The notes: generated from the letters alone by a model not told the origin. A stretch of DNA of 64,000 nt from an uncultured Candidatus Saccharibacteria bacterium (GCA_965231045.1 OZ246406.1:578208-642207), one strand, 5' to 3'. Shown: positions 3,742 through 55,232, counted from the first letter of the stretch. Numbers and translations are program-made.

Positions 3742-4614
3742 TTAGGGTTTAAGTAACAACAAGTCTTTTTGAATTTCTATCGTTACGCCTTTCTTAACCG
3801 GAATAGTTTTGCCAGGCTTTAGAGTTTTTGCGCTAATCACAATTCGTTCGATTATTTTACGATCAAACTCTGTAACACCGTTTGTTCTTAGCCAGCTCGA
3901 TATTAATTCTTTGGCGAGTACATGATCGGAGTTAATTACATTTCTTTTATCTAAAGTTTTTTCCTGCTTTTGATATTCTGCTAGTAACTTGTCGATTTCG
4001 GGATTATGGTGAGAAAGCGTGGCATGAATATCTAGAAACTTCTGACGATCATGTTCGCTAAGTCTTGGAACAATCTCGTGCCGAATTTTATTTCTCAAAT
4101 AATTGGTATCGATATTGGTTGAATCTTCGTGCCAAGTAAGTGAGTTTTGTTTGGCATAGTTAATAAGTTCTTGCTTTGTAACTCCCAAAAATGGTCGTTT
4201 TAGTTTTTCTTGATCACTTAATGAAGTAATACCTTTTCGACCAGTACCACGAAGTAGGTTCAGAATAATTGTCTCGATTAAATCATCTTGGTGGTGGGCT
4301 GTAATGATCGATTTGGCGTGGTGTTTGTTCATGACTGATTCCAAAAATTCGTACCTGGCTTGGCGTGCAGTCGATTCACTAGCAGTACTCCCAAGATGCC
4401 CTTCAGCATATTCAAATAACAAACCATACTTACTGGCTAAGTTTTCTACAAATTTTTTGTCATCACCAGAATCCTCACGAATACCATGATCGAAATGCGC
4501 AACAACTAACTCAATATCAGGCTGCTTACTAAGTGCGTCAAGCAATACGACTGAATCAACCCCACCAGACACAGCAATAATATATCGTCCGGGCTTAAGT
4601 ACCTCGATTTTCAT
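3742..4614 (-). CDS. tilS: tRNA(Ile)-lysidine synthase
   Basis: Contains the PP-loop SGGVDS and HFDHGIR. I prefer the internal ATG (MKIEVLKPG...) at 4614 because the longer ORF would overlap the pyrB stop. Confidence 0.85.
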   Translation of the reverse strand: MKIEVLKPGRYIIAVSGGVDSVVLLDALSKQPDIELVVAHFDHGIREDSGDDKKFVENLASKYGLLFEYAEGHLGSTASESTARQARYEFLESVMNKHHAKSIITAHHQDDLIETIILNLLRGTGRKGITSLSDQEKLKRPFLGVTKQELINYAKQNSLTWHEDSTNIDTNYLRNKIRHEIVPRLSEHDRQKFLDIHATLSHHNPEIDKLLAEYQKQEKTLDKRNVINSDHVLAKELISSWLRTNGVTEFDRKIIERIVISAKTLKPGKTIPVKKGVTIEIQKDLLLLKP

Positions 4615-4621
4615 GCCTACA

Positions 4622-5782
4622 TCATAACAGGCCGAGTATGTTCTGTTCAGCAATAATATCTAGAAGCGCTTCTCTGGCATACAGTCCATTTTTTACTTGC
4701 GGGAAAAATATTGAACGTAGATCATGATCAATCGCTGTATCAATTTCATCTACCCTAGGCAATGGGTGCATAATCCTTGCATCTACAGACAAATCCTTAA
4801 TTGTGTCGGGGTTTAAGACAAATCCCATTTGTGGCTCTGGCTCTGGATCTGACCACCATTTTCTTACCGCCTGTATAGCCCGTCCCCCAAAGTGTTTAGC
4901 CTGAGCATATATTCTGTTATCAGGTTGAGGCATGCGTTCTTTCTGAGTTCTTGTCCAATATACAACATCGATTGAAGGATCTCTCAAGGCATCGTAAACA
5001 TCATTAGTTTCAGTGAATGGAGTACCACTTTTGTGAAGCACATCTTTTACCTCATCAGTCGCGGCAAGCCACGGGACTGATGCGAATGTCACACGAGTAC
5101 CATGAAAACGCGACATCAATCGTGCCAATGAATGAACAGTACGCCCATATCGGAGATCGCCGCCAAAGACTATGTGCCGATCATCTAGTGTCCCAAATTC
5201 ACGATGAATAGTATATGCATCAAGCAAAGCTTGGGTCGGATGCTCACCAGGCCCATCACCAGCATTAATTATTGGGGTTTCACTGGCTCTTGCTGCGCGA
5301 GATAAACTTCCCGATTCTCCATGCCTAATAACAACTGCAGAATACCCCATCTGATCCAATGTATGAGCATTATCTTCGATAGTCTCACCTTTTGCAGCAG
5401 AAGAAAATATGCCTGCAGCGTTAGTGTGCACAACATCCATGCCCAGCATCATGGCAGCGGTTCGAAAACTAAAGTCGGTACGTGTTGAAGGCTCATGGAA
5501 CGTCACACCAATTCGCAAGCCTTTGTGCTTTTCAACCATTTCGCGTCGGCCATCGAGCGTAGCATCCATTCCGCGCAGTTCATCAGCCCGTTGAAAAATT
5601 TCAGGCAGCAGCCCGGGAATAAATTGATCGGCAGAAATAACATGCCAATCATCACTGCCCTTAATAAAAGATTCGTAGAGTCTGGGCTGAACCGGCACAT
5701 CCATAAGAGGTTCTTGTGTATATGGCCCTCCTTCTGGTTGAAAAAGTCTTTCCTGCCCTTCAGTTTCTTGCCCAATACTCAT
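4622..5782 (-). CDS. pyrB: Aspartate carbamoyltransferase catalytic chain, atypical
   Basis: Shows the motifs STRTD (canonical STRTR), RHGESG, HPTQALLD, GDLRYGRTVHS, TRTQKER and HPLPRVDEI. It carries an extra N-terminal segment of about 45 aa and an insertion of about 30 aa before HPLPR. Confidence 0.85.
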   Translation of the reverse strand: MSIGQETEGQERLFQPEGGPYTQEPLMDVPVQPRLYESFIKGSDDWHVISADQFIPGLLPEIFQRADELRGMDATLDGRREMVEKHKGLRIGVTFHEPSTRTDFSFRTAAMMLGMDVVHTNAAGIFSSAAKGETIEDNAHTLDQMGYSAVVIRHGESGSLSRAARASETPIINAGDGPGEHPTQALLDAYTIHREFGTLDDRHIVFGGDLRYGRTVHSLARLMSRFHGTRVTFASVPWLAATDEVKDVLHKSGTPFTETNDVYDALRDPSIDVVYWTRTQKERMPQPDNRIYAQAKHFGGRAIQAVRKWWSDPEPEPQMGFVLNPDTIKDLSVDARIMHPLPRVDEIDTAIDHDLRSIFFPQVKNGLYAREALLDIIAEQNILGLL

Positions 5783-6371: not shown

Positions 6372-6448
6372 TGGTAGCGGCGACTGGAATTGAACCAGTG
6401 ACCTTAGGCTTATGAGTCCTACGCTCTAACCAACTGAGCTACGCCGCC
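6372..6448 (-). tRNA. tRNA-Met (anticodon CAU), elongator type, CCA encoded
   Basis: GGCGGCGTAGCTCAGTTGGTTAGAGCGTAGGACTCATAAGCCTAAGGTCACTGGTTCAATTCCAGTCGCCGCTACCA forms a clean cloverleaf. The G1:C72 pair argues against an initiator. Confidence 0.9.
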
Positions 6449-8851: not shown

Positions 8852-8926
8852 AGCGGGATGGAGCAGCGGCAGCTCGCGTGGCTCATAACCACGAGGTCCC
8901 AGGTTCGAGTCCTGGTCCCGCAACCA
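8852..8926 (+). tRNA. tRNA-fMet-like (anticodon CAU), initiator type, CCA encoded
   Basis: AGCGGGATGGAGCAGCGGCAGCTCGCGTGGCTCATAACCACGAGGTCCCAGGTTCGAGTCCTGGTCCCGCAACCA resembles E. coli tRNA-fMet. It has an unpaired 1:72 (A:A) and discriminator A. Confidence 0.85.
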
Positions 8927-8943
8927 AATTAGCACCTCTGTAG

Positions 8944-8973
8944 CAGTCCTATTCTATGCAATAGGGCTGTTTT
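8944..8973 (+). terminator. Intrinsic terminator after the initiator-like tRNA
   Basis: CAGTCCTATT-ctatgc-AATAGGGCTG is followed by TTTT. Confidence 0.65.
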
Positions 8974-9137
8974 CATGTCAAGGGTATTTGGGGATTCATG
9001 TCATCAATGTGTCATCAAACCTCGCGCGGTTACTAACCCGAAGGTTTTAGTCATGCATAGGCGTGAGGGCTTTACGGGCCCGGTGCCATAACATACAATA
9101 GAGTTATCAAGCATATTGCTTGAACGGCTTAGACAGT

Positions 9138-9180
9138 AAAGAACCCCCTACCTTTCGGAAGGGGGTTCTTTGTTTTGTTT
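9138..9180 (+). terminator. Strong intrinsic terminator
   Basis: AAAGAACCCCC-tacctttcggaa-GGGGGTTCTTT is followed by GTTTTGTTT. Confidence 0.7.
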
Positions 9181-9213
9181 GGTGGGTTGTTTTTGATGAG
9201 CCACTACAACACG

Positions 9214-9305
9214 TGGCGGTAGGTGGGGGATTCGAACCCCCGAATGCCGGCTTAGACATCATCCGTTTTGGAGACGGTTACAATCAACCACTCTGCCAAC
9301 CTACC
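9214..9305 (-). tRNA. Unusual 92-nt tRNA, anticodon CCA (Trp), with a 20-nt variable region
   Basis: GGTAGGTTGGCAGAGTGGTTGATTGTAACCGTCTCCAAAACGGATGATGTCTAAGCCGGCATTCGGGGGTTCGAATCCCCCACCTACCGCCA has a 7-bp acceptor, T-arm GGGGG-TTCGAAT-CCCCC and discriminator G. Its anticodon loop CTCCAAA is identical to that of E. coli tRNA-Trp. Confidence 0.6.
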
Positions 9306-9593
9306 AACTTAAAAAAGTACCCGTGAGCAAGGTGGCGGTTTGAACCACAACGCTCATAGATACTCTATTGTAAATATAAGTGGGTAGATCTAAACCTTTA
9401 TCCCGCCGTGTACCCGGTCACGGTTAGCACTCACTATACTGAGAGTGCTAAATACTGTCAAGAAGTTGGTATCTGTTTTTGAGGTGTGCTATTTACAACA
9501 TGCATGTGCTTATCTGTTAACCCTGTTTACTACGCCGTACTTACCGATAACGATCATGGTTAACCAAATGAGCATTGCTACAATATCTTCAAT

Positions 9594-10028
9594 ATGACAT
9601 ATAGAGGAATGGAGCACGAGCCACAGCCAGGCGAAAAGCCAGAAGTCGCCTTTTGGTTTTTTATCCGCTCAGTCCCTGCCGGCGGTGCACCGCGCTACAT
9701 CAAAGAGGGCTGGGTCAATGTTCCCTTGCCTTGTCGTCGACCACGCGGTGAAGGTCCCGAGCTACATCTAGGTGGTGATGTTGACACCGGAGCCCTAGAC
9801 ATCGTTCCGGATGGTGTGTCGATCGATGCCGATGACGCCATCAAGGCTCTGCGATTGTTCGACCGCCACGAGGCTGCTGATTGGTGGCAGAGCTACATGG
9901 ATGACTGCTACGGCACAGCAGTTGGTGAAGGATTGGTATTCCGTGCTGCAGAAGGTCATCTAGTGCCGCCAAGCATGGCCCATCGATTGCTACCCGGACT
10001 TGAAGACTTCGACCGCATCGAGCCCTAG
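9594..10028 (+). CDS. Hypothetical protein (144 aa), markedly GC-richer than its surroundings
   Basis: Long ORF with protein-like composition and no recognisable motif. The start could instead be the ATG at 9609. Confidence 0.5.
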   Translation: MTYRGMEHEPQPGEKPEVAFWFFIRSVPAGGAPRYIKEGWVNVPLPCRRPRGEGPELHLGGDVDTGALDIVPDGVSIDADDAIKALRLFDRHEAADWWQSYMDDCYGTAVGEGLVFRAAEGHLVPPSMAHRLLPGLEDFDRIEP

Positions 10029-10172
10029 CTCCATGTCATCGCGGATGTCATCACAACTCACACCAACCAGCTAGACAGTCGCACACCAGCGCACATTCGG
10101 AATCGTCAAAAACCTCTGTTGACAGGCACTGATGCCCATAATCACCAACAGGGGGGAATGAGGCGCGACTCT

Positions 10173-10243
10173 CTCATAACCACGAGGTCCCAGGTTCGTT
10201 CGCAAAGCGGATGACGAAGTCATCTGTACTGGTCCCGCAACCA
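10173..10243 (+). pseudogene. Duplicated 3' half of the initiator-like tRNA with a 30-nt insertion in the T-loop
   Basis: 10173-10198 is identical to 8882-8907, and 10229-10245 is identical to 8912-8928. The AGTC of the T-loop is replaced by ttcgcaaagcGGATGACgaaGTCATCtgta. The 5' half of a cloverleaf is absent. Confidence 0.75.
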
Positions 10244-10253
10244 AAAGCACTTT

Positions 10254-10278
10254 GGTCTCAGACACCTGAGGTCTTTTT
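10254..10278 (+). terminator. Intrinsic terminator after the tRNA fragment
   Basis: GGTCTCAG-acac-CTGAGGTC (two G:U pairs) is followed by TTTTT. Confidence 0.55.
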
Positions 10279-10302
10279 GTTTGGTTTTGATATGATATAG
10301 CA

Positions 10303-11136
10303 ATGGAGATTCCTTTAACACCAGGGACTAAATTTATTTTATCGACCTCAGGCAAGGAGTGGGCCCTAGAACGACACAACACAGCGTTGCAAAATTTTGA
10401 TGCAGACCTTACCTACTTTACTTTTGGTCGGCCAATTACAGCAGAAGAATACGTAGGCTTATTTAGGGCACCGATTGTACGAGGAGGTGCCTTAACAGGC
10501 CAAGGTCTCAAGACGGGCATAATCCCATTTATTGATAGTCTCGACCCGCTCGCTGAAAAGCTTGGGTCGGTAAATACCGTAGTGAACATTGATGGCAAAT
10601 TACATGGTTACAACACTGATGCATTTGGTTTTAAAGCCGCCATTACTAATTACTTGGATATGTCGGATAAAGAAATTAATTCTGCTGTTGTCTATGGAAA
10701 CAGTGGTGTTTCTGGTGTCGCGGTTCGTATTTTGCAAAAACTTGGTCTAGAAGTTGGGATGGCTGGCCGCAATGCAGAAAATGTTAAGAAAAAAATGGGC
10801 GAACTCGGTCTAGCCCAAGTTGAAGGTCCGTACGATTTGGTAGTAAACGCTACGCCAATTTCTTCTAAACCAGTCGAAGAAGCAGTTGGACTCGTGCCTT
10901 TGTTAGAAACTGCAAAAGTGGTGTTTGACCACAGCATGCCAGAATTGGATGGTGGCACTAACTATCTCAAAGAATACAGCGAGCAGCATAACCTCGACTT
11001 TATTCCTGGTAATGATATGTACATTCCTCAGATGATTCAACAATGGACACTTTTCTTGAACGGTGTTGAGTCACGTTCTGGTGAGCCGCTGTCAGTTGGC
11101 GAAGCCGACATAAAAGCGGCCTGGAAGCTAGACTGA
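10303..11136 (+). CDS. Shikimate/quinate dehydrogenase-family protein (divergent)
   Basis: SVNTVV, GYNTDAFGF, VNATP and GNDMYIPQ align with AroE motifs. The NADP-binding glycine loop is degenerate (GNSGVSG). Confidence 0.6.
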   Translation: MEIPLTPGTKFILSTSGKEWALERHNTALQNFDADLTYFTFGRPITAEEYVGLFRAPIVRGGALTGQGLKTGIIPFIDSLDPLAEKLGSVNTVVNIDGKLHGYNTDAFGFKAAITNYLDMSDKEINSAVVYGNSGVSGVAVRILQKLGLEVGMAGRNAENVKKKMGELGLAQVEGPYDLVVNATPISSKPVEEAVGLVPLLETAKVVFDHSMPELDGGTNYLKEYSEQHNLDFIPGNDMYIPQMIQQWTLFLNGVESRSGEPLSVGEADIKAAWKLD

Positions 11137-11212
11137 GCTCTTTCCAACGAGCTAGCTATACCAGTATGAGGTTCCAATTCGAGTGAACCTCGGCAACCAA
11201 GTAAGAGTTTTC

Positions 11213-11247
11213 AGATAGAGATAGGTTCCAAAATCTATCTCTTTTTG
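11213..11247 (+). terminator. Intrinsic terminator
   Basis: AGATAGAGAT-aggttccaaa-ATCTATCTCT is followed by TTTTGTTT. Confidence 0.7.
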
Positions 11248-11340
11248 TTTGCCTGAATTTTCACCTCTGTAGTTTAAGTTCGAGCACTTGGGAAGTTTAA
11301 TTTATCTTGAAAAGCCAACCCGATAGTATAATTAACTATT

Positions 11341-11562
11341 ATGGAATCACTGATTTTTGGTAGTTTAATAGCATTAATAGTGTTCGGTATTGTGCTAGTT
11401 GTTTTAATTGTTGTGCCCTTTATATTGATTTTCTTTGTTATTCGTAACTGGAGACACTACCGTAGCGGCACTTCTAATATTGTTCCATTTGTAATAACTT
11501 CAGCCTTACTATTTGTTAATATTTATCTTCTTGCACGGCTCTATATAGATCATCACCAATAA
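11341..11562 (+). CDS. Small membrane protein (73 aa, 2 TM)
   Basis: The hydrophobic profile shows two TM helices. No known motif. Confidence 0.45.
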   Translation: MESLIFGSLIALIVFGIVLVVLIVVPFILIFFVIRNWRHYRSGTSNIVPFVITSALLFVNIYLLARLYIDHHQ

Positions 11563-11589
11563 ATTTCACATTTTTGTTAAACTGTAAGT

Positions 11590-11844
11590 ATGCCAAAGGA
11601 GTTTTCAACAGAAGAAGCCAAAAGTATTGGCGAAAAGATTGGGGTAGATTTTAACAAATTTGACCTCGAGCAATTTCGAATGGGCTTAGCCGTTGAACTC
11701 GAGCATGGCACTCAGTGGGGAGATAGTACAAACGTGACCAAAGACGACCCGCTTGTGACAGGCCGGATTGTTTGGGCACATCTTAAGGAAATTCCTGATT
11801 ATTACACCCGTCTTAACAAGATGGAAAAAGAAGCAGGAAGTTAA
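11590..11844 (+). CDS. Hypothetical conserved-looking small protein (84 aa)
   Basis: ORF with balanced composition containing LAVELEHG and AHLKEIPDYYTRL segments. The family was not confidently identified. Confidence 0.5.
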   Translation: MPKEFSTEEAKSIGEKIGVDFNKFDLEQFRMGLAVELEHGTQWGDSTNVTKDDPLVTGRIVWAHLKEIPDYYTRLNKMEKEAGS

Positions 11845-11854
11845 GGGAGAAATT

Positions 11855-12442
11855 ATGAAAAATTTTGTCATCGCAGCTTTAGTAATAGCTGTATTAGGCC
11901 TTGGTGGATGGGTAGCTTACGATAAGTTGGCCACAAAATCAGATAGTTCAAGCAGTAGCAGTAGCAGCAGTAGTTCTGCTTCAGGTACTACAGCAACAAA
12001 TTCAGCAACTACTTTGGATCTGAGCAACAAAGGTCTAACAAAAGTTGGCTCTGATGTTTATAACAAAACTGGCACAACCGTATTAATTCTATCTAATAAC
12101 AACCTGACCTCTCTACCATCAGAAATGGGTAAGATGACTAAACTTCAAGTCCTCAAACTGGACCACAACCGACTTGAAGGTTCATTGATTGGTGAAATCC
12201 GTAAAATGCCACTTGTGACACTCGATGCTAGCAACAACAACATGACAGGCGTTCCTGCCGAGATCGGCCAACTTAACAAATTAGAAACTCTAGACTACAG
12301 CAATAACAAAATCGATACTTTGCCAAATGAAATCTATAATCTTAAGCAATTGAAAACTTTGAATCTTACAGGCAACCCCATTTCTGCCGACAAAGTTAGC
12401 AAACTAAAATCTGAACTACCAAGCACGAACATCATTATCTAG
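11855..12442 (+). CDS. Leucine-rich-repeat surface protein with N-terminal anchor and poly-Ser linker
   Basis: Starts at MKNFVIAALVIAVLGLGGW after a GGGAGA RBS. It has a 10-Ser run and then about seven LxxLxLxxNxL repeats. Confidence 0.8.
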   Translation: MKNFVIAALVIAVLGLGGWVAYDKLATKSDSSSSSSSSSSSASGTTATNSATTLDLSNKGLTKVGSDVYNKTGTTVLILSNNNLTSLPSEMGKMTKLQVLKLDHNRLEGSLIGEIRKMPLVTLDASNNNMTGVPAEIGQLNKLETLDYSNNKIDTLPNEIYNLKQLKTLNLTGNPISADKVSKLKSELPSTNIII

Positions 12443-12470
12443 CTCGTTATTTACTTGGTATTATTAGTGC

Positions 12471-13583
12471 ATGACCTTAGATGCAGTTGTGCACGCCCTG
12501 TCAACATCCTTTGCTATGGGATGGGAAATACTGTGGGCTTTGATTCTCGGGTTTTTCTTGTCGGCAATCGTACAAGCCCTGGTTCGTAAAGCAACTATCG
12601 GTAAACTCATGCCTGATGATTCGGCAAAAACTTTGGCAATCGCCACAGCGCTTGGTGCGGCATCGTCATCTTGCTCTTATGCGGCTGTTGCCCTCGCCCG
12701 CTCACTTTTTCGCAAAGGTGCAAATTTTACCGCTATAGTCGCTTTTGAAATTGCATCAACTAATCTAGTTATTGAGCTTGGTATCATCATGGCCATTTTA
12801 CTTGGCTGGCAGTTCACGCTCGCTGAATTTATTGGTGGACCAATAATGATTATTATTCTAGCCGTTATATTTCGTCTCACCCTTCGCAAGCAAATGTTAG
12901 AAGATGCCCTAAAGCAGGCCGAGAAAGGCGAGCAAGGCAAAATGGAAATGCACGCCGCTATGGATATGAGTGTGCAAGAAAAAGGGAGTTTCTGGAGAAG
13001 GCTATTCTCCAAGAGCGGTATTAATTCAGTAAGTAGCCTTTATGTTATGGATTGGCAGGCAATCTGGAAAGATATTGTTATTGGACTTTTGATTGCCGGA
13101 TCTATTGCAGCTTGGGTACCAGAGAGCTTTTTTGCTAAATTCTTCTTTACCGACCACCCAGTTTTTAGCAAAATTTGGGGCCCACTAATTGGACCATTTA
13201 TTTCAGTTATTAGCTTCGTTTGTTCAATCGGAAACGTCCCTTTAGCTGCCGTACTTTGGAATAGCGGTATAAGTTTTGGCGGGGTCATTAGTTTTATATT
13301 TGCCGATTTAATCGTCATCCCTATACTTTTGATCTACCGAAAATACTACGGGACTAAAATGGCCATCTATAAATTTGTAACCTTCTACATTGCCATGGTG
13401 TTGGCCGGATATATAATAGAATTCTTGTTTAGCTGGCTACACCTCATCCCGACTGAGCGTAACGCAACTGTGCTCGAAGCATCAATAGCCTGGAACTATA
13501 CAACTATACTTAATCTAATATTTCTAACACTATCAGGGTATCTTATATATCGTTACGCCCGTTCCGGCCGAGTCCAAATGTAA
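12471..13583 (+). CDS. Predicted permease (polytopic, ArsP/DUF318-like)
   Basis: 370 aa with about 9-10 TM segments, including Cys-containing conserved-looking segments (SSSCSYAAV, VCSIGNVPLAAVLW). Confidence 0.6.
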   Translation: MTLDAVVHALSTSFAMGWEILWALILGFFLSAIVQALVRKATIGKLMPDDSAKTLAIATALGAASSSCSYAAVALARSLFRKGANFTAIVAFEIASTNLVIELGIIMAILLGWQFTLAEFIGGPIMIIILAVIFRLTLRKQMLEDALKQAEKGEQGKMEMHAAMDMSVQEKGSFWRRLFSKSGINSVSSLYVMDWQAIWKDIVIGLLIAGSIAAWVPESFFAKFFFTDHPVFSKIWGPLIGPFISVISFVCSIGNVPLAAVLWNSGISFGGVISFIFADLIVIPILLIYRKYYGTKMAIYKFVTFYIAMVLAGYIIEFLFSWLHLIPTERNATVLEASIAWNYTTILNLIFLTLSGYLIYRYARSGRVQM

Positions 13584-13611
13584 TCACGAAATGCTGCAAA
13601 GTAGCGTCAAC

Positions 13612-13639
13612 TTGACATCCCAGATTTGTGGAGTACATT
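13612..13639 (+). promoter_or_regulatory. Promoter TTGACA-16-TACATT driving a terminator-containing leader of about 150 nt
   Basis: Reads TTGACAtcccagatttgtggagTACATT. Confidence 0.5.
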
Positions 13640-13757
13640 AACAGGTATGGTATCAACTAAGGCTATCCCGATGACAAAGCTTGCCGCAGCGATTGTGGTT
13701 AGTGAGGGGAGTGCCTTATAGTTTGTAGCCAATAAATAAAGTAACTGGACAAACGAG

Positions 13758-13790
13758 CCTCCCCGAACAAACGGGGAGGTTTTATTTTGT
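13758..13790 (+). terminator. Intrinsic terminator/attenuator immediately upstream of the RBS of 13808..14074
   Basis: CCTCCCCG-aacaaa-CGGGGAGG is followed by TTTTATTTTG. An outer GGACAAA/TTTGTCC pairing is possible, and an upstream GGGGAG could act as an antiterminator. Confidence 0.65.
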
Positions 13791-13807
13791 CCGAAAGGAG
13801 ATAATAA

Positions 13808-14074
13808 ATGCAAACTTTAGAAACAGAAAGGCCAGTTGTAGGTTTTGGCAACAGCGATAATGGTAGATTTGCTGAAGCCGACTTACTAGTAGTCGAGTCG
13901 GACCACCCAGAACAACGTAGAGTGGTTCAGGGCGCCATACAATTTATCTGGGATAAACTACGGCTTTATCCAGTCGAGGCTAGCCCAGCAATGAGCCAGC
14001 ACTTTGGACATGCCGAACGACGCAATGACCCTGCCCCACAATTTGATGATCCAAATACGGGTCATCTGGGTTAG
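13808..14074 (+). CDS. Hypothetical protein (88 aa)
   Basis: ORF with RBS AAAGGAG placed 8 nt upstream. No known motif. Confidence 0.45.
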   Translation: MQTLETERPVVGFGNSDNGRFAEADLLVVESDHPEQRRVVQGAIQFIWDKLRLYPVEASPAMSQHFGHAERRNDPAPQFDDPNTGHLG

Positions 14075-14076
14075 TG

Positions 14077-53279: not shown

Positions 53280-53480
53280 CTAATTATCAAGTCCAACTCC
53301 TTCACAGCATTTTGTAGGCATTTTGCATTCGGGGCAAACAAAATGACCATGAACCGGGATTATTGGGTAGTGTCCGCAGTTATCACAAAAGAATTCAGGT
53401 GACTTTTCACTAATTAGCTGCTCATAAATTTCGTCAGGCTGCGATTGCTTCTGGTTGTTGGTGCTCTCTTGGGAGTTCAT
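53280..53480 (-). CDS. Small zinc-ribbon protein (66 aa from ATG; 72 aa from TTG 53498)
   Basis: Contains CDNC-x15-CPEC and a terminal CC. It overlaps the 3' end of 53434..55035 in the +1 frame. Confidence 0.5.
   Translation of the reverse strand: MNSQESTNNQKQSQPDEIYEQLISEKSPEFFCDNCGHYPIIPVHGHFVCPECKMPTKCCEGVGLDN
53286..53308. repeat. Direct repeat copy B (3' end of the zinc-ribbon ORF)
   Basis: tcaagtccaactccttcacagca lies 120 bp from copy A. Confidence 0.9.
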
Positions 53481-55035
53481 GATATTTTTTCCGTTCAAAC
53501 AGTTTTATTATATGCCCTTCTGAGCTTTCACCTTCTTTTTCGTCCACATTAACATCAATATCATCGGCTTTTTCTAGCTTCTCTCCCCGATCATCTCTTT
53601 CGGTACAATTTTTACAAATACTACATGGGCCAACTTTTGTTTTGCCTGGTCTAGTCTTACAATCTTTGATAATACAAACGCCTATTTTCCATTCCCATTT
53701 TTCTTTAGGAATATCCCCTTCAAACTTACCGCCGTATGCTTCCTGAGGATTGATATTTTTGATACCCATAATTTCTTCTTTTGTTATCCCGCCTAAGACA
53801 CTTTTCTCGGCAAGATCTATATTGCCAGGGCAGCCTCCATAGGATCGTTTTTCGGCAATCCCTGTGCGAATATTTTGCGCCAGCAGTTGGTCTACATTTA
53901 TAGGGGCTGTATGCATATAGCGCATCGCGTGGGGCTTAACTTGAAGTTGATTTGTAGTTTTTACTCTTGGCTTTAATGACTCCGCCAAACCTTTACGCAT
54001 TTCTTCGGCCACGGCATAACGAATAACTGAATCTAATAAACTACCATCCTCATCACTCAAGAATTTCGAGTTACTTATGCGCATGAGTTGCTGGCGAATA
54101 TCGGACTTAAGCTGACTATTATTTTCGTGAACTGTTTGGGCAAAACTCCTTAACACATCATTGTTTTTACCCGTATAAACCGCCTCCGCCAACGGAATAT
54201 AATAATGATCAAAGAATTGTCTGAGCACTTTCTCGCTCGATTCCATATATCTCGTAACTGAATGTTTATTAGTAACTTTATTAATCCGCTTGTTATATTC
54301 AACTCGCATTTTCTTAACAAACTCATGTGCCTCATCAGAAGTTGCTTGTATAATTTTGCGATGCTTAAGCCATGTGTTGTCTGACTCATCTTCAGGAATA
54401 GACATACCATTTTCTTCAAGCAAAGCTCTAAATTTGTCTTTGTCAGTAACCTCAAAAGAGAATGATCCAGTTGTGAGCGTTCCATCATCATTCATCGAGT
54501 AGGTTTGAACATACACAAGGAACTCTTTATAGCCAAATTTCTTGTCATAAATTTCTGGATGGTCTTTTAAGTCTTTTTGAGCGGCAAAGCTCACTCCCCA
54601 CAGTGTCTGACCGGGTAGTAATTTATCGTTGTCTTTACCAACTTCTTCATCAATCTCGTCTCTTGTTGCTTGGCCTTGGTATCTTTTATCTAGCTTAGCC
54701 ATTTTAGCTGAAGCAAGAGCGCCATTTCTAAGCACATCGACCATTGGCTGACCATCACGAGCCCGAACTTTGTTATCAATAACCGCGTGGGTTCTAATGT
54801 TATTTATTTCAAGTTGTTCGCCAAATTCTTTATCAGTTTTGAGCATTTCTGCTTCGGCAGTCGCAAAATCATCAAAAGCTAAATCTAGGATGGTTTCTTT
54901 ATACTCAACATCAACAGTTGGCTCAACGGCTACATGTCCAAGCTTACGCAAAGTTGAAAGTGAATGCGCATACACTTCTGGTTGCGTTCCTTCCCTCAAT
55001 TTTGGTTCTAGTTCTACCACTTCGGCTAGTGACAT
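53434..55035 (-). CDS. Uncharacterised 533-aa cytoplasmic protein with C-terminal Cys cluster (C-x4-C-x11-C-x2-C-x2-C)
   Basis: Long ORF with no signal peptide and no family recognised. It lies immediately downstream of the cobalamin-riboswitch-like leader. Confidence 0.6.
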   Translation of the reverse strand: MSLAEVVELEPKLREGTQPEVYAHSLSTLRKLGHVAVEPTVDVEYKETILDLAFDDFATAEAEMLKTDKEFGEQLEINNIRTHAVIDNKVRARDGQPMVDVLRNGALASAKMAKLDKRYQGQATRDEIDEEVGKDNDKLLPGQTLWGVSFAAQKDLKDHPEIYDKKFGYKEFLVYVQTYSMNDDGTLTTGSFSFEVTDKDKFRALLEENGMSIPEDESDNTWLKHRKIIQATSDEAHEFVKKMRVEYNKRINKVTNKHSVTRYMESSEKVLRQFFDHYYIPLAEAVYTGKNNDVLRSFAQTVHENNSQLKSDIRQQLMRISNSKFLSDEDGSLLDSVIRYAVAEEMRKGLAESLKPRVKTTNQLQVKPHAMRYMHTAPINVDQLLAQNIRTGIAEKRSYGGCPGNIDLAEKSVLGGITKEEIMGIKNINPQEAYGGKFEGDIPKEKWEWKIGVCIIKDCKTRPGKTKVGPCSICKNCTERDDRGEKLEKADDIDVNVDEKEGESSEGHIIKLFERKKYHELPREHQQPEAIAA

Positions 55036-55165
55036 AAAAAATCCTGCTCGTTGAGCAGGGATAGAATGGTTGTCTTTCGCTCCTGCTCGGGAGACTTTCT
55101 TAGGCTGTATCGGGCTTTAACCGTTGCGGCACAGCGTAGGAATTTCACCTACTTCCAGCTTATTT
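55036..55165 (-). promoter_or_regulatory. Cobalamin (B12) riboswitch candidate with intrinsic-terminator expression platform
   Basis: The minus strand reads GGAAGTAGGTGAAATTCCTACGCTGTGCCGCAACGGTTAAAGCCCGATACAGCC. This matches the conserved GGAA..GGTGAAAxTCC..GC.G..CCGC.AC.GT.A core and a B12-box-like AGCCCGAxAC.GCC. It is followed by GAGCAGG...CCTGCTC-aac-GAGCAGG-ATTTTTT and then the ATG. Confidence 0.65.
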
Positions 55166-55232
55166 ATTTTGTTAAGTAATAGTAGTATATCACCAACTAA
55201 ACACACTATATGTAGTAGTTTTGGCTATATTT

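Follow-up and report, generated by a model that had tools for sequence, protein, structure and literature searches.

Class-II transfer RNA (tRNA) architecture in bacteria is, according to textbooks, restricted to the leucine, serine, tyrosine and selenocysteine isotypes. The subject of this analysis is a 92-nt gene for a class-II tRNA with the tryptophan anticodon CCA, found within 64,000 nt of the genome of an uncultured Candidatus Saccharibacteria bacterium (GCA_965231045.1, OZ246406.1:578208-642207; this whole stretch is called the window, and positions are counted from its first nucleotide). The reading we favour, with moderate confidence, is that the gene encodes an intact, probably expressed and horizontally acquired tRNA in which a serine-type body carries the CCA anticodon, that it is the cargo of an integrase-less remnant of about 1.3 kb integrated at the initiator tRNA-Met gene, and that it belongs to a family with two forms.

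The concept of such a molecule is known from anticodon-variant tRNA-Ser, allo-tRNAs and nev-tRNAs; the class-II body with CCA is apparently the new part. The identity that seryl-tRNA synthetase (SerRS) reads rests on the long extra arm, whose size is the major determinant, and does not depend on the anticodon; G73, acceptor pairs and G30-C40 add to it, and C2-G71 is an anti-determinant (PMC9976931). Variants of tRNA-Ser with foreign anticodons are still serylated, and they mistranslate (PMC9976931). Unlike these, the type found in the window is a natural and recurrent gene on mobile DNA, neither engineered nor sporadic, and it additionally bears the main tryptophan determinants, for which tryptophanyl-tRNA synthetase (TrpRS) may compete. 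Allo-tRNAs are described as Ser/Sec-like bacterial tRNAs with varied anticodons (PMC7590224, PMC7609411) and nematode nev-tRNAs as class-II tRNAs with glycine or isoleucine anticodons (PMC3333845). The window tRNA shares with both a long extra arm and the identity elements of one amino acid combined with the anticodon of another; nev-tRNAs differ from it in being eukaryotic and of leucine type, and the texts searched report no CCA anticodon for either group.

Phage and plasmid tRNA arrays, regarded as anti-defence or codon-supply cargo, are a further likeness, as the window tRNA too sits on mobile DNA, but it is a single gene on a 1.3-kb chromosomal remnant and its acceptor end is of serine type, not of the tryptophan type found in arrays. 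No class-II or serine-bodied tRNA with a CCA anticodon is described in the searchable literature, the coverage of which is incomplete and which therefore offers absence of evidence only; the family appears to be undescribed.

ARAGORN calls the gene as a 92-nt tRNA with anticodon cca, and the Rfam tRNA model matches 9217-9305 with 50.9 bits (gathering score 29, E 5.8e-08). Read as RNA from 5' to 3', the molecule is parsed as GGUAGGU-U-G-GCAG-AGUGGUUGA-UUGU-A-ACCGU-CUCCAAA-ACGGA-U-GAUGUC-UAAGCC-GGCAUU-C-GGGGG-UUCGAAU-CCCCC-ACCUACC-G-CCA. The acceptor stem (GGUAGGU/ACCUACC) has 7 bp and is followed by the discriminator G73 and an encoded CCA end. The T-arm has 5 bp, all of them paired (GGGGG/CCCCC), the D-stem has 4 bp, two of them G.U, with a 9-nt loop that includes G18G19, and the anticodon arm (ACCGU-CUCCAAA-ACGGA) has 4 bp plus an A27.A43 mismatch below which stands a 7-nt loop. 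The acceptor/T geometry is the canonical 7/5, U8 and G9 are normally placed, and position 24 is G. A first-pass annotation, made from the sequence alone, had proposed a 92-nt tRNA with a CCA anticodon, a 7-bp acceptor stem, a perfect T-arm, G73, an encoded CCA and an anticodon arm with an A:A mismatch, and all of these are found; the strand, which it did not state, is the minus strand.

The same annotation had reported a 20-nt variable region without an obvious class-II stem. The 20 nt are present, but they fold: between U44 and C48, GAUGUC and GGCAUU form a 6-bp stem closed by the 6-nt loop UAAGCC, and this stem appears both in the minimum free energy fold of the whole molecule and in the isolated region (-4.5 kcal/mol). 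Since the variable region forms a helix, the window tRNA truly belongs to class II. Logan assemblies of separate runs (SRR13287411/15/16/21, SRR14092351/372/387) carry an identical sequence, and an assembly artefact is therefore rejected as its source.

The body shows serine architecture throughout. The D-arm (UGGCAGAGUGGUUGAUUGU), the length and sequence type of the D-loop (AGUGGUUGA), C11:G24, G1:C72, G2:C71 (C2:G71 being absent), G30:C40, C48, G73 and the long paired extra arm are all those of bacterial tRNA-Ser; the anticodon, CCA, is not one of serine (NGA or GCU). With canonical tRNA-Trp(CCA) the molecule shares the CUCCAAA anticodon loop, G73, G2:C71 and G5:C68, whereas its 20-nt extra arm stands where the short variable loop of 4-5 nt would be, and G1:C72, U3:A70 and A4:U69 occupy the places of the tryptophan determinants A1:U72, G3:C70 and G4:C69. 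Among 872 collected tRNAs the nearest are tRNA-Ser(UGA) genes, with up to 76% identity, while class-I tRNA-Trp genes reach at most 63%. The suggestion that the gene is a tRNA-Trp with an insertion is contradicted by these identities and by the serine character of the whole body. A second suggestion, that of an allo-tRNA-like species of mistaken identity, holds for the serine identity elements on a non-serine anticodon and not for the geometry, which is 7/5 and not 8/4 or 9/3; allo-tRNA proper is rejected on this ground. Also rejected is tRNA-Sec (8/5, with a 6-bp D-stem, a 4-nt loop and the anticodon UCA), as the window tRNA has 7/5, a 4-bp D-stem, a 9-nt loop and CCA.

Among 50,697 annotated phage genomes the window tRNA comes closest to a genuine tRNA-Ser(UGA), that of Flavobacterium phage immuto. 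BLAST searches for a CCA form in cultured phages, made with the window insert and two phage-type members of the family described below, returned only ordinary tRNA-Ser(UGA) genes, some of them unannotated, from Flavobacterium phage immuto, Pseudomonas phage RVTF4, Xanthomonas phage Xoo-sp13 and Acidovorax phage ACP17. Among plasmids no match was obtained.

Bacterial tryptophan identity comprises G73, C34-C35-A36 and the first acceptor pair (A1-U72), together with G2-C71, G3-C70, G4-C69 and G5-C68 (PMC9976931). UGG is tryptophan, and the code standard, in the host genome: the eight TGG codons of the neighbouring DUF3152/PG_binding_4 gene (8/8) fall on columns that hold W in 105-119 of 119 homologues. 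Reassignment of UGG is rejected on the same alignment. The window tRNA would pair with these UGG codons. SerRS, which recognises the extra arm, G73 and acceptor pairs and takes no account of the anticodon, would encounter in it a complete serine identity set, and TrpRS would encounter the two strongest bacterial tryptophan determinants, the CCA anticodon and G73, with the minor acceptor determinants mostly missing. The ambiguity between SerRS and TrpRS that the first-pass annotation had pointed out is thus a fair description, and the co-occurrence of the full serine set with CCA and G73 suggests a dual-identity tRNA. Structure would favour charging by SerRS, charging by TrpRS would be possible via CCA and G73, and the outcome is ambiguous. 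Given expression, the chances appear evenly balanced that the product would be mainly seryl-tRNA, with low-level substitution of serine for tryptophan at UGG; mainly tryptophanyl-tRNA, a spare tryptophan decoder with a foreign body, appears somewhat less probable, and a poorly charged tRNA would be unlikely. In ranking, we favour mainly serine charging, with the spare tryptophan decoder a strong second and a silent relic third.

The gene is not alone. A search pattern made of the serine-type D-arm plus the CUCCAAA anticodon loop matched contigs from three collections: 8 from the GTDB species set, 13 from IMG/VR and 85 from JGI metagenomes. ARAGORN gives tRNAs of 84-99 nt with anticodon cca at 98 of the 102 loci analysed, and after de-duplication 75 distinct well-formed class-II tRNA(CCA) sequences remain. 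G73 is present in 73 of these and C48 in all 75. Pairing in the acceptor, anticodon and T stems is 95-100% canonical, each position showing 3-7 pair types, and in 70/75 members the extra arm has a better fold than shuffled sequence. Because the pattern fixes the D-arm and the anticodon loop, the conservation of these two is by construction and the census is biased, which counts against the reading given at the outset. Class-II tRNA(CCA) genes form a real, structurally constrained family. The window tRNA has all of its features, namely the serine-type D-arm, CUCCAAA loop, paired extra arm, G73, C48 and 7/5 geometry, and its best identity to any member is about 75%, not above its identity to tRNA-Ser(UGA).

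Smaller variations occur within the family. At T-stem position 51:63, G.U is found in 55/75 members and G:C in the window tRNA, and five members (L017, L046, L106, L032, L056) have a T-loop with C54 for U54 (UCCGAAU or UCCAAAU); both might serve to adjust EF-Tu binding or modification. Three loci in metagenome-assembled genomes of Bacteroidota (L020:6654-6739, L024:6003-6089, L018:2268-2354) were left out of the family statistics. They have the serine-type D-arm and the CCA loop with acceptor pairing broken at the 3' end, and may be tRNA-Ser-derived pseudogenes or integration scars.

The majority of the family is of an array form, located in arrays of 8-30 tRNAs typical of large phages. Among 77 long CCA tRNAs, pair 1:72 is A:U in 41, G.U in 10, U:A in 9 and G:C in 8, pair 2:71 is C:G in 34 and G:C in 31, and pair 3:70 is G:C in 56. 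Class-I tRNA-Trp genes resident in the same arrays (n=11) have A:U at 1:72 in 10, C:G at 2:71 in 8 and G:C in 3, and G:C at 3:70 in 8, while co-resident tRNA-Ser genes (n=48) have G:C at 1:72 in 38, G:C at 2:71 in 43 and A:U at 3:70 in 39. The acceptor ends of the array form agree with class-I tRNA-Trp of the same arrays and not with tRNA-Ser. Carrying tryptophan determinants together with the SerRS anti-determinant, the phage form resembles a tRNA-Ser body that has been given the identity set of tRNA-Trp. The window tRNA has G1:C72, G2:C71 and U3:A70 at these positions.

The convergence of phage members on the tryptophan acceptor end, often with C2:G71, bears on whether the window tRNA itself could be a tryptophan-accepting spare, charged by TrpRS and delivering tryptophan at UGG from a body that tRNA-targeting nucleases and toxins of host or phage do not recognise. 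Its G73 and C34-C35-A36 are major bacterial tryptophan determinants (PMC9976931), G2:C71 and G5:C68 are also present, and faithful decoding would explain persistence without harm. A role of this kind has been proposed for the tRNA sets of phages and plasmids: extra sets on mobile elements are treated as anti-defence devices whose bodies typically depart from those of host tRNAs in the D, anticodon and variable arms (PMC12803027, which cites PMC10264068 and PMC11555353). The window copy, however, lacks A1:U72, G3:C70 and G4:C69 and has the full serine set instead, nothing known stops SerRS from charging it, and the host is a small-genome episymbiont without a tRNA array whose element has this one tRNA only. 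Taken over all evidence, a tryptophan-accepting spare is possible but rather unlikely.

Long arms in phage-like arrays extend beyond CCA. Some 60 more long-armed tRNAs of 82-91 nt occur there (loci L022-L122, e.g. L057, L060, L047) in isotypes that are normally class I: Met 9, His 8, Cys 8, Asn 7 and Glu 6, as well as Pro, Val, Lys, Thr, Ile, Gln, Asp and Arg. They retain isotype hallmarks, e.g. G-1 in His and U73 in Cys. At least 9 are present on one 242-kb contig (L057, ERZ869929 NODE-4), and the cultured jumbo phage RVTF4 of Pseudomonas has an 88-nt tRNA-Cys (L135, 2669-2756). It appears that certain large phages give class-II bodies to many of their tRNAs.

The solitary form, the minority, has G1:C72, usually G2:C71 and often an encoded CCA end, and occurs on bacterial contigs near transposases or toxin-antitoxin genes; its members are L017, L046, L099, L106, L019, L053, L081, L092 and the window copy. 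The window copy would belong here by its features, a placement that reflects shared features at about 74% identity and not demonstrated common descent. Four Acidobacteria-like copies retain CCA although compensatory changes have altered their anticodon stem, extra arm and T-stem; CCA on the serine-type body is therefore kept by selection in these copies, as opposed to sporadic mutation.

Neighbouring genes recur in part of this form. Three Acidobacteria-like loci (L017:458-1749, L046:3759-4808, L106:3150-4256) have the tRNA(CCA) gene divergently adjoining an open reading frame (ORF) of about 135 aa for a Gp49/HigB(RelE)-like toxin, with an XRE-type helix-turn-helix antitoxin beside it and transposases close by, so that the linkage of tRNA, toxin and antitoxin is conserved. 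A different arrangement is seen at L081:3626-3913, where a class-II tRNA(CCA), a 91-nt class-II-bodied tRNA-Cys(GCA) with U73 and a tRNA-His stand in tandem; the CCA and GCA anticodons read UGG and UGY, the codons that flank UGA.

A bolder and doubtful proposal is that solitary serine-type class-II tRNA(CCA) genes are deliberate mistranslators, serylated and inserting serine at UGG, and so a device of mobile elements whose expression degrades or diversifies the proteome. Such a tRNA could act as an addiction, stress or abortive-infection factor, a role that would fit the repeated HigB/Gp49-type toxin-antitoxin neighbours in the Acidobacteria-like contigs, and the phage-array relatives would then have been adapted to TrpRS. 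A tRNA-dependent reaction that turns Ser-tRNA(CCA) into Trp-tRNA is still more speculative, and nothing supports it.

The genomic setting of the window copy is that of a mobile insert. The 3' half of an initiator tRNA-Met gene forms a left attachment-like (att-like) copy, of which a 26-28-nt block and a 20-nt block reappear downstream, at 10171-10198 (anticodon loop to T-loop) and 10226-10245 (3' strand of the T-stem, 3' strand of the acceptor and CCA), interrupted by 27 unrelated nt. Integration into a tRNA gene leaves behind such a duplicated 3' half, which suggests that origin here. The bracketed insert of about 1.3 kb has 49.9% GC compared to 41.3% for the window; its content is the tRNA(CCA) gene and a 144-aa ORF only, divergently oriented. 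A promoter-like site matching 11/12 consensus positions lies about 128 nt upstream of the tRNA 5' end, and a terminator-like hairpin sits between the convergent tRNA-fMet and tRNA(CCA) genes. Scanning the insert for other RNA elements gave none credible, and no integrase is left in the insert or in the 64-kb window.

Features of the window referred to in the text
Feature	Coordinates	Strand	Basis or remark
TilS (lysidine synthetase) gene	3742-4653	minus	
Third CAU-anticodon tRNA	6372-6448	minus	
Initiator-type tRNA-Met, integration target; A1.A72 mismatch, A11:U24	8852..8926	+	ARAGORN, Rfam, repeat analysis
Left att-like copy	8880-8928		3' half of initiator tRNA-Met
Stretch from initiator tRNA-Met to DivIC	8927-14076		
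Inverted repeat I4, terminator-like	9138..9171	both strands	15-nt arms, 93% complementary, 4-nt loop
Class-II tRNA, anticodon CCA, 92 nt	9214..9305	minus	ARAGORN; Rfam tRNA; fold; domain parse
Promoter-like site TTGACA-17 nt-TATAGT	9433..9461	minus	consensus scan, pattern match only
Orphan ORF, 144 aa, 56.6% GC	9594..10028	+	only protein cargo of insert
Right att-like repeat, displaced tRNA-fMet 3' half	10171..10245	+	repeats D1, D2
Divergent AroE-like shikimate dehydrogenase	10303-11136		below family cut-offs
533-aa ORF	53434-55035	minus	no Pfam domain
AdoCbl-II (cobalamin) riboswitch match	55097-55175	minus	41.1 bits (gathering score 36.5)

Relatives with about 50% protein identity keep the gene order MurJ-FtsH-TilS-DUF3152-tRNAfMet without the class-II tRNA(CCA), and in one of them (L039) a serine recombinase of 526 aa occupies this site beside tRNA-fMet. 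A JGI contig (L133) has a 79%-identical copy of the 144-aa ORF, behind which come a displaced 3' half of tRNA-fMet, here uninterrupted, and a terminator; this is another case of the element family at that target. It is the single nucleotide relative of the ORF at that identity and is too short to show linkage to the tRNA. The placing of the gene inside an integrated islet in the first-pass annotation agrees with the repeats that bracket the stretch of higher GC, and its suggestion of a mobile-element tRNA gains from the att-like duplication, the foreign GC, the absence from syntenic relatives and the second copy of the element.

As for the protein cargo, the 144-aa ORF has one homologue with 57% identity among 5.8 billion proteins (at L042, which is without the tRNA) and no Pfam, PHROG or NCBIfam match, and its AlphaFold (AF2) model is unusable, with a mean predicted local distance difference test (pLDDT) score of 38.6. 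It is unrelated to the HigB-like ORFs beside the acidobacterial tRNA(CCA) copies and was rejected as a conserved protein partner.

Absence from the relatives also bears on whether the window tRNA could be the only tRNA-Trp of its genome, a class-II gene having replaced the canonical one. In its favour, no other tRNA-Trp lies within the 64-kb window. The insert, however, is of foreign composition and bracketed by att-like copies, and is missing from relatives in which UGG stands for tryptophan at these conserved sites; another tRNA-Trp must therefore have existed in the ancestral genome, and its loss after the acquisition would be required. A replacement of this kind is the least probable explanation considered.

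Several further points weigh against an intact and expressed gene. Its promoter and terminator are consensus matches only. The integrase is lost and the right att-like copy interrupted, so that the element is decaying and its cargo could be as well. Over all shared sequence, 21/21 Logan contigs are 100% identical to the window; the available assemblies thus represent one clonal strain and give no population signal of purifying selection on this copy. Searches with patterns of the exact acceptor plus D-arm, of the D-arm alone and of the T-arm plus acceptor found no close relative with any anticodon in IMG/VR or JGI metagenomes, nor, specifically, a tRNA with its acceptor stem and D-arm. Among the 75 family members the A27.A43 mismatch is present only in the window copy, in addition to which there are the two G.U pairs of the D-stem. 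Finally, efficient insertion of serine at invariant tryptophan positions should be harmful, which argues for low activity, for charging by TrpRS or for non-function.

Most of these points would equally suit a non-functional relic, that is, a tRNA-Ser on a decaying element whose anticodon changed to CCA, a single base change from the serine anticodon CGA, and which is now silent, poorly processed or uncharged, and neutral. Against decay of the tRNA itself, nothing is damaged in the acceptor stem, the T-arm with its T-loop, the extra arm, G18G19, C48 or the encoded CCA end, the Rfam score is 50.9 bits, and the promoter-like site is near consensus and accompanied by the terminator-like hairpin. 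The serine-type body with CCA moreover recurs in unrelated bacteria, where CCA is kept through compensatory stem divergence, and L092 has the same anticodon arm as the window tRNA with U43, so that 27:43 is paired. In view of L092 the mismatch is probably a recent point change, a single U43-to-A. A relic is improbable on the whole, and the favoured reading remains that of an intact tRNA with a serine-type body.

The unpaired 27:43 may weaken the window tRNA or add some reading of UGA. A tRNA-Trp(CCA) whose stem is 4 bp long, unpaired at the top, gives UGA readthrough in E. coli (PMC13092985, 2026), and by analogy the 4-bp stem with A27.A43 might let the CCA anticodon read UGA stops. Like the 'Blastocrithidia-like' tRNA-Trp defined in that study, the window tRNA has 27:43 unpaired, a 7-nt loop and G9 and G24, i.e. 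neither of the readthrough mutations A9C and G24A; its body, however, is class II of serine type and not that of an ordinary tRNA-Trp, and the effect was tested on class-I tRNA-Trp bodies only. TGA is an ordinary stop in the host, terminating 14/62 window genes, and the insert genes hold no in-frame TGA that would need suppression. Many standard-code bacteria, furthermore, have a 4-bp-stem tRNA-Trp without reassignment (PMC13092985). A role as UGA reader is thus very improbable.

With about 75 distinct sequences, covarying helices and a distribution over phage arrays and bacterial mobile DNA, a class-II tRNA of canonical geometry with a tryptophan anticodon is no one-off. The serine-type copy in the window is a natural test case both for competition between SerRS and TrpRS over one tRNA and for natural mistranslating tRNAs circulating on mobile elements, and it could also serve as a ready scaffold for orthogonal-tRNA synthetic biology. 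Annotation labels these genes tRNA-Trp by their anticodon, which may be wrong. On the phage side, the long-armed Trp, Met, His, Cys, Asn, Glu, Lys and other tRNAs suggest that large phages remodel the bodies of tRNAs in a systematic way but preserve their synthetase identity, and this bears on the current idea that phage tRNAs serve escape from tRNA-targeting defences.

Housekeeping genes surround the insert: MurJ, FtsH, TilS, aspartate carbamoyltransferase, TruD, dihydroorotate dehydrogenase and DivIC. Those homologues of the DUF3152/PG_binding_4 gene that have names are assigned to Candidatus Saccharibacteria or Saccharimonadales, and with the housekeeping genes they mark the host as a Saccharibacteria (CPR) bacterium. 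No tuf/secE/nusG cluster is present at the window edges. The stretch from the initiator tRNA-Met to DivIC differs in each relative (L038:2455-5925; L039:3764-5375) and is therefore regarded as an integration hot spot; besides the insert it holds, in the window, the AroE-like gene and genes for a DUF5661 protein, a leucine-rich repeat protein and an ArsP-type permease.

The initiator-type tRNA-Met itself varies among these genomes. Position 1:72 is A1/A72 in the window and in L039 (5301-5375) and C1/A72 in L038 (5851-5925), and thus the mismatch is kept with a different base. The anticodon stem has only two of the usual three G:C pairs, and in the window gene compensatory changes relative to L038 and L039 are found at 7:66 and 50:64.

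Elsewhere in the window, the third tRNA with a CAU anticodon lies about 1.7 kb from the TilS gene and may be a tRNA-Ile2 modified by TilS, rather than a methionine tRNA. The AdoCbl-II riboswitch match is located upstream of the 533-aa ORF.

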